Shown here: positions 4,453 through 17,051 of the stretch, piece by piece
Layout of the letters: every line of letters begins with the position of its first letter
How positions within the stretch are numbered: the first letter of the stretch is position 1
Sequence record: PV419677.1
Reading direction: 5' to 3' (one strand)
From: a phage
Length of the DNA stretch: 64,000 nt
Translations under genes and position numbers: made by a program
The notes under the pieces: generated by a model
What the model was told of the DNA's origin: nothing
What the model saw: the letters and a program-made list of their open reading frames with translations, nothing else
Databases searched by the model: none

Positions 4453-4710
4453 TTATTCCTTAATTCCTAATACTTGTTTGAAGGTCTCAGTATAATCGGG
4501 GTATTGACCGGTTTGTTCTTTATGTTTGACCATAATACCATAAACTCCTGAACGCATATTATTATATGAACGAGTTAAAGCAGATTTCAATACTGAATAA
4601 CTATCCGGAAGTTTACCGTGTTCTTTATAATAGGCCAGAGTTAATTCACGGACCGCCTTATCAGCAGTCTCAAGATATTCTTTACGCTTTGCCATTTTCG
4701 TCTCGCTCAA
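4453..4710 (-). CDS. hypothetical protein
   Basis: ORF track, 85 aa. Confidence 0.5.
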
Positions 4711-5026
4711 ATTTGTGTTTACAATGTCTGCATTTGTAACGAAGAGTACTAGTCTGCCAATGGACTAACTGGACCTGTTCAGTTCCGCATTCTGGACAGT
4801 TAGGAACGCTCTTAGAAGCACGTTCACGGCGGCGAACCATAGCCATTACCATATCCCAATCAGGAACCTGACTATAATCATCACAGCCATGAATCTTTCC
4901 TAACTGCACAAGGTCAACGCCCTCAGCGTTTTCAATAAATTTTAAAAGACCTTTATTAAACCCCGCCCCGGGTGTCCATTCTGGAAATGCAGTTTCTGCA
5001 ATATCTTCAGCTAAACGTTGTTTCAT
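4682..5026 (-). CDS. zinc-ribbon protein
   Basis: 114 aa; [13 protein letters not shown] four-Cys pattern. Confidence 0.5.
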
Positions 5027-12601: not shown

Positions 12602-12985
12602 TTACTCTAATGTTAACAGATACTTAGTCTGAAAGAAAACTCCAACGATATCGTCCAGAGTCGATTGAATAGCCTTAGGTACAACTTTATAGACTCTTTC
12701 CGAGCTTTTAATCATTTCATCTAAAAACAAAATTGTATCTTTCGGCAAGTCCGAGGCGGACGGTAATGCAGCTTTGTATTGTTTCCCGCTGTAACCTAAC
12801 CATTGCTCACTGAACTGGTCGAGTGGACCTTGGATTTCTGTGAAGTAGAAATCATAAGCTTTATGGCGGGCGTAACTTTTGGTTTCAAGATGGGCGGACT
12901 TAAAATAAGCCAAAGAGACTAACAACCACCCAATATATGAATCCACCTCAGACCCACGACCCGTTACGAAATCATCAAATTTCAT
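12602..12985 (-). CDS. hypothetical protein (rI.-1 position)
   Basis: ORF track, 127 aa; downstream of rI. Confidence 0.5.
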   Translation of the reverse strand: MKFDDFVTGRGSEVDSYIGWLLVSLAYFKSAHLETKSYARHKAYDFYFTEIQGPLDQFSEQWLGYSGKQYKAALPSASDLPKDTILFLDEMIKSSERVYKVVPKAIQSTLDDIVGVFFQTKYLLTLE

Positions 12986-13268
12986 CTTCCAATTTTACCT
13001 TCATTAATTTAGCGTACTCGACTGCAGCAGCCCGGCCATCAATTTGACATGTGATTTCATTTACACATTGACTCTTATTGTTCCATTCAGTTTTAATAAA
13101 AGCCCAAAATTGTTCGGACTGCTCGACGCTGGGTTCTTTGAATTGCGAATAGATTTGCATCGCACTATCTGCATACTGGGTAAATTTACCATCTGTAGCA
13201 GAGGACATATTTGGGCCTAAACAGCCCATTAGTAATAGACTTAGAGAAAGTCCTCGAATAAGGTCCAT
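12975..13268 (-). CDS. rI: lysis inhibition regulator, periplasmic
   Basis: 97 aa; signal-anchor N-terminus; SEQF and Cys-x-Cys pattern resemble T4 RI as recalled; lies next to tk. Confidence 0.65.
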   Translation of the reverse strand: MDLIRGLSLSLLLMGCLGPNMSSATDGKFTQYADSAMQIYSQFKEPSVEQSEQFWAFIKTEWNNKSQCVNEITCQIDGRAAAVEYAKLMKVKLEDEI

Positions 13269-13337: not shown

Positions 13338-13345
13338 TATTTATA
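13338..13345 (-). promoter_or_regulatory. late promoter octamer TATAAATA (minus strand)
   Basis: exact octamer about 70 bp 5' of the rI start. Confidence 0.4.
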
Positions 13346-13616
13346 GACGTTTAAAATTAAAGCAGTACTCTGAAAATAAACCTGCAAAATTACGTTCAAC
13401 CCAGACCCGTTGTTTTGGGCTAGTGACCATTGACAAATAGTATGCTTGTTGCAGGCTTATTCCATTTTTATTAGGACACTCTTTGTTGAACGAGTGATAG
13501 GTACTTGCAACGATTTCGACTTCGCGCTCATACCTTTCCTGGTCCTGCTGCATAGGAACAAAAACCAAAACCAGGAATATCAAAATAGAGATATACGTCC
13601 AAACCTTGTATACCAT
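13341..13616 (-). CDS. small membrane-anchored protein (rI.1 position)
   Basis: 91 aa; hydrophobic N-terminal helix. Confidence 0.5.
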   Translation of the reverse strand: MVYKVWTYISILIFLVLVFVPMQQDQERYEREVEIVASTYHSFNKECPNKNGISLQQAYYLSMVTSPKQRVWVERNFAGLFSEYCFNFKRL

Positions 13617-13623
13617 GCGAACC

Positions 13624-14196
13624 TCAGCTTGTTAATTCGAGCCAATGTTTTCTGCACAAAGATACGTACGATTCATTCCCACCGACCAATACTTGCTCGC
13701 CGTCCTTTACAGCAGCACCGTCGATTACTCGAGCGGTCATGGTTGCTTTCCGGCCGCAATGGCAGACGCCCTTTAATTCAACCAGTTTATCCGAAATAGC
13801 CAGAAGTCTGGCTGAACCGGGAAATAATTGACCCCGAAAATCTGTTCTTAACCCGTAACACATAACGGGGATATTGTAATTATCGACCACTTGAGCTAAC
13901 TGGTCAATTTGCTCTGGTAACAAAAATTGAGCTTCATCGACCAGGACACAATGGATATCCTTTTGAGACTCGGCCCATTTATAGAATTCAAACAGGTTCA
14001 TGTCGGCCGTTACCAGGTTTGCTTCCTGGCTAATACCGATGCGTGATTTAATTTCAGATTCCGAGTCCCGATTATCAATAACAGGTTTTAGCAAAAGCAC
14101 ACTCATTCCACGCTCTTTATAGGAATAAGCTGCAGTCAGCAATGAAGCTGTTTTGCCTGCATTCATTGCTGCGTAATGATAAATTAAACTCGCCAT
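13624..14196 (-). CDS. tk: thymidine kinase
   Basis: 190 aa; P-loop MNAGKTASLL; C-terminal Cys pairs typical of TK. Confidence 0.9.
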   Translation of the reverse strand: MASLIYHYAAMNAGKTASLLTAAYSYKERGMSVLLLKPVIDNRDSESEIKSRIGISQEANLVTADMNLFEFYKWAESQKDIHCVLVDEAQFLLPEQIDQLAQVVDNYNIPVMCYGLRTDFRGQLFPGSARLLAISDKLVELKGVCHCGRKATMTARVIDGAAVKDGEQVLVGGNESYVSLCRKHWLELTS

Positions 14197-14205
14197 ATCA
14201 CCTTC

Positions 14206-14391
14206 TTAAAGCGTATTCACATAAGCTATTAATTCGTTTTCTTTCTCGTCAAATCGACTAGCAAATTCTTCCAGATGGTCGGCATCTATTGGGCCATATT
14301 CATCGTAAAAAGCGTTTGCTTCGGCATGCTCTTCCAAAAGCTCATGGATGAGCTCAAACAATCTACTTTTCTGACTAATACTTAAACTCAT
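14206..14391 (-). CDS. hypothetical acidic protein
   Basis: ORF track, 61 aa. Confidence 0.45.
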   Translation of the reverse strand: MSLSISQKSRLFELIHELLEEHAEANAFYDEYGPIDADHLEEFASRFDEKENELIAYVNTL

Positions 14392-14594
14392 TTCGGTTCA
14401 CCATATCGCACAAATTTAGGATGTTCGCAATAACCAGAATGAAAACCTTCACCCTTATGATTAGAACATCCTTTATTAGAACAGTACCACCAGTAATCAT
14501 ATTCGCAATTCATTTCATCATTGCATAAAGCTGCGATTACTGGCCATTCGCATTTTTCACATTTGGCCGTTTTAAGAATTCGGGCTTGGCTCAT
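14388..14594 (-). CDS. Cys/Trp-rich small protein
   Basis: 68 aa with 9 Cys. Confidence 0.5.
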   Translation of the reverse strand: MSQARILKTAKCEKCEWPVIAALCNDEMNCEYDYWWYCSNKGCSNHKGEGFHSGYCEHPKFVRYGEPK

Positions 14595-15045
14595 AATCCA
14601 CCACTATTAAATCAATGTCAGGAGTAAACATATCAATTAATTTAGAAACCTTTTCCCAATCTCCACCTGCAATACCACAACCAATACGCGGAATATAAAT
14701 TACCGGTTTAAACAAAAGGGTTTCTGCTTGTAGATTTAATTCTATCATACAATTTACTAAAGCACCATAATCAAGATTAGGGCCCGGTTCATATTGGGTG
14801 TACAAATTATAACACATACCAAACCCATTGGGCTTATGTTTAAAAACAATAGACATATCACCGAGTTTTTCTCTGGAACCGTATTCAGTAGTGGTTTTAT
14901 CTATTTCTAAAACTTTTGGATAAGCCTTCGCCAACTGTCCGGCAACACCAGAACCCATTGTGTGGAAGCAGTTACAACCATGGGCAATAATATTACCTTG
15001 AAGAAAGAGGGCGACGATATCGCCCTTAATATACTGGGTAATCAT
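14572..15045 (-). CDS. macrodomain protein (ADP-ribose binding/hydrolase fold)
   Basis: GDIV..NIIAHGCNC..MGSGVAGQL and PRIGCGIAGGDW match macrodomain signatures (compare E. coli YmdB). Confidence 0.7.
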   Translation of the reverse strand: MITQYIKGDIVALFLQGNIIAHGCNCFHTMGSGVAGQLAKAYPKVLEIDKTTTEYGSREKLGDMSIVFKHKPNGFGMCYNLYTQYEPGPNLDYGALVNCMIELNLQAETLLFKPVIYIPRIGCGIAGGDWEKVSKLIDMFTPDIDLIVVDYEPSPNS

Positions 15046-15401
15046 TTAGAGTTCAATCCTCTATTATATGAATCCACTAACCTGTCAACCATACTGGTGC
15101 AGGCCGCCTTATATTTTGCACTTGACAGAATGCAATCCATTTCAAATAATTTCTTTTCATATTTGTTGGATAATACATTCTTTTTCAAAAGCGTATGTTC
15201 AACATCATTTTGGCCATCTTTATAGGCTGCAGTGAGCTTGGCACTGAACTGGATTACACAATCCACATTGCTTGCTGCGCAATAATCTTTGGCCGTCCTC
15301 GTTGCATATTCTATGATGCTGTTGTTGTCGTCGCTCTGTACTGAAGCTATTCCTCCCATGCTGAATACTAACCCTATGGCTAAAGTGATAACTCTTACCA
15401 T
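15042..15401 (-). CDS. secreted/periplasmic protein
   Basis: 119 aa; signal peptide MVRVITLAIGLVFSMGGIASV; four Cys. Confidence 0.55.
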   Translation of the reverse strand: MVRVITLAIGLVFSMGGIASVQSDDNNSIIEYATRTAKDYCAASNVDCVIQFSAKLTAAYKDGQNDVEHTLLKKNVLSNKYEKKLFEMDCILSSAKYKAACTSMVDRLVDSYNRGLNSK

Positions 15402-15403
15402 TT

Positions 15404-15946
15404 TTAATCCACCGTTTTTAATAGGCCTCGTGATTTCAAGTAGTTAGCTTTTTCTAGGACCTGTGAAGCATACGTATTACCAGCTTTCACATTCCACCCT
15501 GCGTTATATGATGATAGTGTTTTTCTTATATCCCCCTTATGAATATTCAACCAGTATGAAAGCTCAATATAAGCCCAGCGTGCACTGTTCTCTCTCTTGC
15601 TTATCATCTTGATTATTTCTTTATCTGTCATTGTCCACCCAACCTGTTTCACTCGTTCGCGTACGGTTGGAAGATAATTTTGGAATATACCATATGCATG
15701 ATGCTTATCTTTATTTAATCCAGTATTAATCCCAGCAGAACTCTCCTGCCAGGTTAAACCAGCCATGATATATCCCAAACCATTATGTTGGTGCGGATTT
15801 TCTTTGTACTTACCATTTTTCTGGAATTGTTCTCCAAACGCATAAGCATATTGGAGGTTTTCCATTTGTTCATTACTGAAAGTAGGCTCTACGCTATGGG
15901 CAGACATACTAACTGTCAATAGTAAGGTGGCGATTACTTTTTTCAT
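15404..15946 (-). CDS. periplasmic lytic-transglycosylase-like protein
   Basis: signal peptide MKKVIATLLLTVSMSAHS; QESS..AYGIFQ..SYNAG resembles family-1 lytic transglycosylase motifs. Confidence 0.6.
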   Translation of the reverse strand: MKKVIATLLLTVSMSAHSVEPTFSNEQMENLQYAYAFGEQFQKNGKYKENPHQHNGLGYIMAGLTWQESSAGINTGLNKDKHHAYGIFQNYLPTVRERVKQVGWTMTDKEIIKMISKRENSARWAYIELSYWLNIHKGDIRKTLSSYNAGWNVKAGNTYASQVLEKANYLKSRGLLKTVD

Positions 15947-15956
15947 GAATTCCCCA

Positions 15957-16415
15957 TTAGATATAAATCACTTTTGTGCTAATTTTTCCTTCCAGACGAT
16001 TAGAGTTAACAAACGCCATACGACAACACATGGTCGGAGACTTCCCAGGAATAGCGGGGTTAACTGTCATTCCTAACCACAGGTTCTTGTCTGTGATTTC
16101 CAGACGAAGTGGACGGTAGTTCACATTCGGGTCAATTTGTGCTTCAACTTCCGGGAGTGGTTTCATTTCCAGGAATTCAACGATTTCTTTTACATGTGGT
16201 GTGATTTTTCCAAACAAGTCAAAAACATATTGTTCATCAATTTCACGTTGGATTGCACGGTCCAACAGGTGCGGACTGTACTTAATGAAGAATGCTTCAA
16301 GGCCTGCTTCTTTACAAGCCTTGTTGATAGCATTATTAATTTTGAGGAACTCCGTTTCAAAAATGCGACGAAGTTTATTGCGGCGAATGTAAACACTTGA
16401 ATCGATAGTAGTCAT
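15957..16415 (-). CDS. regB: RegB site-specific endoribonuclease
   Basis: from MTTIDSS: VYIRRNKLRR..HLLDRAIQREIDEQYVFDLF matches T4 RegB as recalled; 152 aa. Confidence 0.8.
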   Translation of the reverse strand: MTTIDSSVYIRRNKLRRIFETEFLKINNAINKACKEAGLEAFFIKYSPHLLDRAIQREIDEQYVFDLFGKITPHVKEIVEFLEMKPLPEVEAQIDPNVNYRPLRLEITDKNLWLGMTVNPAIPGKSPTMCCRMAFVNSNRLEGKISTKVIYI

Positions 16416-16471
16416 GATTATCTCCTTTTGTTTGATGGGATAATCATAACTCATTTCAATCTGCTTGTACA

Positions 16472-17051
<580 letters not shown>

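Follow-up and report, generated by a model that had tools for sequence, protein, structure and literature searches.

In this study, we analysed a window of 64,000 nucleotides (nt) from the phage sequence record PV419677.1 and describe two abutting genes in it, vs.1 and vs, whose products are both predicted to be exported, the first of them as an enzyme resembling lytic transglycosylases. The window comes from a T4-like phage (Straboviridae). Around the two genes, a 2-kb stretch matches the DNA of Shigella phage fPSFA at 100% identity; for Shigella phage SP18, Escherichia phage vB_EcoM_RZ, and related records the figure is about 97%. The coding sequence of vs.1 (15404..15946) specifies 180 amino acids (aa) plus stop and that of vs (15042..15401) specifies 119 aa plus stop; both lie on the minus strand, as do all features described within them. 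By sequence similarity, the 180-aa open reading frame (ORF) product is the ortholog of T4 Vs.1 (NP_049725; UniProt P13311 / Y06E_BPT4), to which it is 65% identical, and it matches phrog_600 over residues 1-178 of 180 (E=2e-67), in addition to the DNA match of its gene to fPSFA. A total of 89 homologs of Vs.1 were found with E<=6e-31. The 119-aa product is, again judged from its sequence, the ortholog of T4 Vs (NP_049724; UniProt P13310), named "valyl-tRNA synthetase modifier", with 46% identity to the T4 protein and a match to phrog_1256 "valyl tRNA synthetase modifier" (E=1.4e-32); the domain PF26829 is present in all Vs homologs according to precomputed assignments. The gene order regB - vs.1 - vs - tk.4 ... 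tk ... rI matches that of T4, and the vs.1 orthologs of related phages are annotated either as vs.1 or as SLT-domain proteins.

The GH23/SLT lysozyme-like catalytic domain predicted in Vs.1 spans about residues 58-173 (15428..15775). A preliminary description of this DNA, made from the letters alone, had likened the motifs QESS, AYGIFQ, and SYNAG of the 180-aa protein to those of family-1 lytic transglycosylases; the three motifs are indeed present at the positions noted there, and their key residues are invariant. Motif I, W-Q-E-S-S (residues 66-70, 15737..15751), contains the predicted catalytic Glu68 (codon 15743..15745). Motif II, A-Y-G-I-F-Q (residues 84-89, 15680..15697), is equivalent to the GLMQ of family-1 transglycosylases, and motif III, S-Y-N-A-G (residues 146-150, 15497..15511), is followed downstream by the motif IV residue Tyr159. 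In an alignment of 32 Vs.1 homologs, E68, S69, G86, Q89, Y147, N148, G150, and Y159 are invariant, together with a second acidic residue, E128. A larger alignment of 44 sequences, reaching down to 22% identity, leaves Gln27, Glu68, Trp132, Tyr147, Gly150, and Tyr159 invariant, with Ser69 and Gly86 nearly so. The putative catalytic Glu, on whose conservation the earlier suggestion depended, is therefore unchanged in both alignments. An exhaustive profile search with Vs.1 returned 482 representative clusters, and the ES dipeptide was found in 120 of the 128 full-length representatives of this wider family, the members of which are, from their sequences, small exported SLT-type proteins. One strong match to the Vs.1 profile, the 2679-aa repetitive protein P0131 (E=1.6e-41), was discarded as a false positive whose score is caused by its repeats; it consists of 19 weak repeat matches, all to the YWL...GWN segment of the profile.

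The Pfam family SLT (PF01464) was matched by 28 of the 44 wider-family members (E<=0.01, with a best value of 2.2e-10), and several close homologs of Vs.1 carry a precomputed PF01464 match. When the profile of the wider family was compared with PDB chains, the type III secretion system (T3SS) transglycosylase EtgA was found (E=4e-6), followed by goose-type lysozyme, and in the alignment Glu68-Ser69 of Vs.1 falls on ES within the EtgA motif WNES. A goose-lysozyme-like alpha-helical fold is supported for Vs.1 by structure prediction and fold search, in which g-type lysozymes rank among the top structural matches. A search against NCBIfam gave noise only. The likeness to lytic transglycosylases in the preliminary description is thus borne out by fold search, structure prediction, and the wider-family match to EtgA, and together with the motifs these support Vs.1 as an exported GH23/SLT lytic-transglycosylase-like enzyme.

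This assignment is a rediscovery; the preliminary description had not identified the two ORFs as the known genes vs.1 and vs. An SLT likeness of vs.1 was already noted in the T4 genome papers and appeared in print in 2003 and 2006, and the window copies of both genes are near-identical to those in deposited genomes. Marginal SLT matches for each of the six vs.1 orthologs, with E-values of 0.012-0.74, were described by Nolan et al. 2006 (PMC1524935), who took them to corroborate earlier T4 PSI-BLAST results. UniRef and several deposited genomes already name Vs.1 "SLT domain-containing". A search of the literature found no paper characterising Vs.1.

Another reading takes Vs.1 either as a remnant of a transglycosylase that binds peptidoglycan without catalysis or as a true hydrolytic lysozyme. 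The Pfam SLT score of the window protein lies below threshold (14.4 bits, E=0.029, with a gathering cut-off of 21.3), GH23 includes the hydrolytic g-type lysozymes found among the top structural matches, and the invariant E128 provides a second acid, all of which would suit this reading. We nevertheless regard it as very unlikely, because neither the catalytic Glu nor any of the four family-1 motifs changes across widely diverged sequences, as is typical of an active enzyme. In addition, the motif set of family 1 fits Vs.1 and that of the g-type lysozymes does not; in the classification of Blackburn and Clarke, ES, GxxQ, and (A/S)YNxG reportedly mark family-1 transglycosylases and not g-type lysozymes.

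The proposal that both ORFs encode secreted proteins with signal peptides was examined by a signal-peptide heuristic combined with conservation across homologs. One fixed heuristic was applied to every non-overlapping window ORF of 60 aa or more, 103 in total, and only two of them passed, vs.1 and vs, which are adjacent to each other. Both N-termini open with positive charge, continue through an uncharged stretch of 13-18 residues, and have small side chains at positions -3 and -1. The predicted Sec signal peptide of Vs.1 covers residues 1-18 (MKKVIATLLLTVSMSAHS; 15893..15946), with an n-region charge of +2, a 13-residue uncharged core, and A-H-S at -3 to -1, and would be cut before V19 of the following VEPT. 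That of Vs covers residues 1-20 (MVRVITLAIGLVFSMGGIAS; 15342..15401), with IAS ahead of the predicted cut and VQSD behind it. Although the sequence drifts, all 32 Vs.1 homologs examined retain the signal-peptide character, as do 28 of 29 Vs homologs, of which only an N-terminally truncated one lacks it, and a signal-like N-terminus was found in 107 of the 128 full-length representatives of the wider Vs.1 family. The structure model of Vs.1 has a low predicted local distance difference test score (pLDDT) over the signal peptide. Signal peptides are thus predicted for both proteins and conserved in both families, as had been proposed, and Vs.1 and Vs are predicted to be Sec-exported periplasmic proteins.

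In four loci of the survey described below (L031-L033 and L050), the Sec signal of Vs is replaced by a lipobox signal (LSGC). The Vs ortholog in these loci (about 4549..4875; 2495..2821 in L032) starts with MKKLFVLLVVFALSGC and carries, besides the lipobox, a fifth Cys; judging from this sequence, it is probably lipid-anchored rather than soluble. Full-length T4 Vs with an N-terminal His-tag was reported to be insoluble in the E. coli cytoplasm (PMC8076793).

The AlphaFold2 (AF2) model of Vs consists of four helices with a pLDDT of 82.6. The Vs family diverges to about 20% identity, keeping the signal peptide in all members but the truncated one. Across the Vs alignments (A2, A5, and A6), four cysteines, C41, C48, C90, and C101, are invariant, as are Gly63 and Gly115. 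The cysteines span 15099..15281, with the codons of C41 (15279..15281) and C48 (15258..15260) checked in the sequence and those of C90 and C101 at 15132..15134 and 15099..15101. The AF2 model places them at the turns between helices 1 and 2 and between helices 3 and 4. They show no metal-site pattern and probably pair in two disulfides. The mature protein has a calculated mass of ~10.9 kDa. Neither Vs alone nor the profile of its close homologs gave a meaningful match to PDB chains. Taken together, sequence and model predict Vs to be an exported four-helix, four-cysteine periplasmic protein.

The two genes are closely joined. The TAA of vs.1 (15404..15406) is separated by a 2-nt spacer from the ATG of vs (15399..15401), and a Shine-Dalgarno-like GGTGGA lies within the 3' end of vs.1 ahead of the vs start; this layout of the junction (15399..15415) suggests translational coupling. 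We further surveyed 71 vs.1 loci, comprising 70 viral contigs and T4. In 65 of the 71, vs.1 is followed on its own strand by a gene for a Vs homolog, and in 56 of these 65 the two genes abut or overlap, with gaps from -8 to +7 nt. In loci L061-L068, vs is found 0.5-1.2 kb downstream of vs.1. By comparison with the vs.1-vs junction, tk.4 follows vs directly in only 28 of 70 loci. Moreover, in seven loci (L051-L053, L055, and L058-L060) regB, tk.4, and tk are gone and the vs.1-vs pair is intact; the Vs orthologs encoded there match those named from Acinetobacter phages. In the same seven loci rI, which encodes an antiholin, is located ~700 nt downstream, so that three predicted periplasmic proteins are clustered.

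Damaged copies of vs were also found beside intact vs.1. In L005 (4541..4798), an in-frame deletion leaves an 85-aa vs without the first Cys pair, and a shortened vs of this type is annotated in Escherichia phage vB_EcoM_005. In L035 (4549..4876), vs is split by a frameshift and its match begins 141 nt downstream of vs.1. A distant Vs.1 relative, P0158, is encoded on a phage-like contig unrelated to these, and no neighbouring gene there resembles vs.

In T4, vs and vs.1 are transcribed as early mRNAs and their proteins were detected by mass spectrometry as middle class (PMC9697503), which argues against a role purely in lysis at the end of the cycle; lysis timing and superinfection exclusion had been suggested in the preliminary description as possible roles. 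Mutant phenotypes are available from the HIDEN-SEQ T4 transposon study (bioRxiv 10.1101/2025.11.20.689424), in whose tables both genes are classed "non-essential". Among all genes, vs was the most depleted in M9-glucose compared with LB, and a clean vs knockout plaqued poorly in M9-glucose. After LB competition, mean insertion counts in the same study were 26.6 for vs and 22.6 for vs.1, against 179 for regB, 290 for tk.4, 652 for vs.3, and 767 for tk.3. From LB to M9 the log2 fold change was -2.19 for vs (q=0) and -0.87 for vs.1 (p=0.0055, q=0.16), and from K-12 to the clinical strain CFE299 the log2 values were -1.20 for vs.1 (q=0.015) and -1.04 for vs. The phenotypes of the two genes track each other, which would fit two genes with one function in common but also a polar effect on vs of insertions in vs.1.

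These data bear on the possibility that Vs is a periplasmic inhibitor of the immunity type, which would hold the Vs.1 transglycosylase inactive until some trigger releases it. A shared periplasmic location and co-translation are predicted for the two proteins, and a muralytic enzyme present in the periplasm from mid-infection without lysis would presumably need restraint; loss of vs is also more harmful in M9 than loss of vs.1, and a precedent exists within T4 in the protein Spackle (PMC7650644). However, insertions in vs.1 abolish the enzyme and probably vs as well; an inhibitor of this kind predicts that they should be neutral, whereas they are under-represented in LB to the same degree as those in vs and significantly depleted in CFE299. 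The parallel phenotypes do not fit a Vs that merely neutralises a harmful Vs.1, and we have therefore down-weighted the simple antidote model. Several phages hold vs.1 with vs absent or broken, and Vs is unlike Spackle (hhalign probability 2.4%) and unlike any solved inhibitor. In loci L012 and L014, Vs.1 shares 77% identity with its window counterpart and Vs only ~25%, and no obvious co-variation between the two proteins is apparent. For these reasons an inhibitory Vs appears decidedly unlikely to us.

The name of Vs stands in conflict with these predictions. The signal peptide and the four conserved cysteines predict a periplasmic protein, which is at odds with a role on a cytoplasmic tRNA synthetase. 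In classical genetics, a locus named vs was associated with an effect on valyl-tRNA synthetase (ValRS) in the cytoplasm, and the factor tau was reported at roughly 10 kDa. Vs could accordingly be cytoplasmic tau that binds the ValRS of the host, with Vs.1 alone in the periplasm and the adjacency of the two genes reflecting conserved T4 gene order between proteins with unrelated jobs. The annotation as ValRS modifier is universal, the calculated mass of mature Vs would fit the size of tau, and synteny is strong in this region, where regB lies alongside in 53 of 70 loci. Classical literature on the subject is cited in PMC8076793, and the HIDEN-SEQ authors interpreted the minimal-medium defect of the vs knockout as an effect on translation (bioRxiv 10.1101/2025.11.20.689424). 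A cytoplasmic Vs, however, leaves much of the evidence without a place: the signal peptide keeps its character across divergence to about 20% identity, lipobox versions exist, the invariant cysteines lie at helix turns rather than in a metal-site pattern, the stop-start coupling to the exported enzyme persists where flanking genes are lost, and the vs phenotype is common to vs.1 insertions. Our literature search, which reached neither older papers nor the T4 genome review and the 1975 ValRS paper, found none that assigns tau to the vs ORF and no proof that this ORF encodes it. We hold the equation of Vs with tau to be unlikely.

A more far-reaching proposal can be put forward only tentatively, and we would not yet rely on it. 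The vs ORF may not encode the ValRS modifier at all, or that activity may be a second and unrelated one. Its product would instead be a disulfide-stapled four-helix periplasmic protein, lipid-anchored in some phages, forming with Vs.1 a conserved two-gene module that, in place of tRNA charging, explains the minimal-medium defect, and the true tau would be encoded by another small ORF in the tk-regB interval.

As the overall interpretation, we consider it rather probable that Vs.1 is an early-made periplasmic transglycosylase and Vs its co-exported partner, and that together they remodel the cell wall. Translated from an early mRNA, Vs.1 would reach the periplasm in the early to middle phase of infection by means of a Sec signal peptide, which would be removed by cleavage after about residue 18, and would act there as a soluble enzyme. 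It is predicted, from its sequence and model, to fold as a single lysozyme-like GH23 domain with the full family-1 motif set. The enzyme would cleave the bond between N-acetylmuramic acid (MurNAc) and N-acetylglucosamine (GlcNAc) in peptidoglycan, with Glu68 acting as the single acid/base catalyst, and probably leave 1,6-anhydroMurNAc ends. Vs would be translated from the vs.1 message in direct coupling to the vs.1 stop codon, exported through its own signal peptide, and become a small four-helix protein stapled by two disulfides. In the periplasm it would then act in the pathway of Vs.1, most likely by binding the enzyme and directing or adjusting its activity, rather than as a simple antidote. 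T4 without the endolysin e does not lyse, and thus Vs.1 is not a lysis enzyme in its own right. Rather, while infection proceeds and long before lysis, the pair may remodel the sacculus in a controlled way or weaken it in advance. There is weak support for the view that this role matters most on slow-growing or non-laboratory hosts.

A number of observations weigh against a wall-remodelling pair. On the side of the enzyme, the window protein fails to reach the SLT cut-off as described above, its model gave Foldseek E-values of only about 0.08, and neither Vs.1 alone nor the profile of its close homologs found a solved transglycosylase among PDB chains. On the side of the pairing, gene order is generally conserved in T4-like phages, so that being adjacent says little by itself about a functional link, and the neighbouring regB is itself retained beside the pair in most loci. 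No vs was detectable near vs.1 in six of the 71 loci, and together with the damaged copies in L005 and L035 this indicates that Vs.1 is not strictly dependent on Vs. With regard to the phenotypes, the effect of transposon insertions in vs.1 could be polarity on vs. A search of the literature found no measurement of enzyme activity, export, or mutual binding for Vs.1 and Vs. Finally, if the vs ORF is the classical vs locus, the periplasmic model of Vs is wrong or incomplete. As to the nature of the six loci lacking vs, four are T4-like contigs of 161-174 kb (L054, L056, L057, and L069) and two are contigs of about 310 kb (L070 and L071).

Several further features were noted in the surroundings of the two genes. 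Upstream, regB is listed in the window at 15957..16472 (minus strand) with a GTG start giving 171 aa. The Pfam RegB match starts at residue 23 of this product, and the true start is probably the ATG at 16415, giving ~152 aa; T4 RegB has 153 aa. Directly downstream of vs and overlapping it by ATGA is tk.4 (14572..15045, minus strand), a macro-domain gene (Pfam Macro E=1.5e-8, phrog_335), whose T4 counterpart is named AdfM, an anti-DarTG2 factor, in the HIDEN-SEQ preprint (bioRxiv 10.1101/2025.11.20.689424). A terminator-like hairpin on the minus strand (15008..15026), with an 8-bp stem including 5 G-C pairs and followed by CTTTCTTC, is located 16-34 nt past the vs stop within the first tk.4 codons, and could be either a chance structure or an attenuator between vs and tk.4. 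Promoter signals at the locus were at background level only in our scan. The tk gene is found at 13624..14196. At 12975..13268 lies rI (Pfam Antiholin E=2.6e-30), which the preliminary description had taken as a neighbour of the pair; it is nearby but not adjacent, being about 1.8 kb away. Between tk and rI, a minus-strand ORF (13341..13616; phrog_6298) encodes a strongly hydrophobic N-terminal segment, WTYISILIFLVLVFVP, which looks like a membrane anchor. Another minus-strand ORF (14388..14594) encodes a Cys-rich product of 68 aa with the motifs CEKC, CxxxxxC, and CSNKGC, which may be a zinc-binding protein.

The point of interest at this locus lies in Vs, an exported-looking protein that carries the label of a cytoplasmic tRNA-synthetase modifier in every T4-like genome. 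If the two proteins do form a periplasmic pair that remodels the wall, a decades-old annotation of vs would be corrected, a third phage-encoded muralytic activity would be added to T4 biology, and the conditional phenotype in minimal medium would receive a testable explanation.

Compared with known systems, the window copy of Vs.1 differs in nothing substantive from T4 Vs.1: the two agree in length class, signal peptide, and motifs, and their genes both lie between regB and vs. The window copy represents the variant of fPSFA, SP18, and vB_EcoM_RZ. The family-1/GH23 enzymes, such as Slt70, MltE, and MltC of E. coli and Slt, MltF, and MltD of P. aeruginosa, provide the broader frame. Vs.1 corresponds to a single domain of ~160 residues and, unlike these enzymes, is phage-encoded and made early in infection, lacks a lipid anchor and accessory domains, and has an extra N-terminal helix with the invariant Gln27. 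Its sequence similarity to them is so low that the window protein misses the Pfam cut-off. The small specialised transglycosylases of secretion systems, represented by EtgA of the enteropathogenic E. coli (EPEC) T3SS and by the VirB1, IpgF, and P19 type, act in the context of a secretion machine, whereas Vs.1 is surrounded by phage early genes and, if it has a partner, this would be Vs instead of a rod or needle protein. The second catalytic Asp of EtgA could not be mapped reliably onto Vs.1. Vs shares with T4 Vs the four cysteines, the signal peptide, and the gene position; the function for which the T4 protein is named requires a cytoplasmic protein, in contrast to the exported, disulfide-bonded protein predicted from the features of the window copy. 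Vs shows no sequence or fold similarity to T4 Spackle (gp61.3), a small helical protein whose signal peptide is cleaved and which acts in the periplasm on the phage gp5 lysozyme (PMC7650644). Spackle provides a functional analogy for a possible role of Vs, and the blocking of Tse3 by Tsi3 provides a further one for Vs as an inhibitor.

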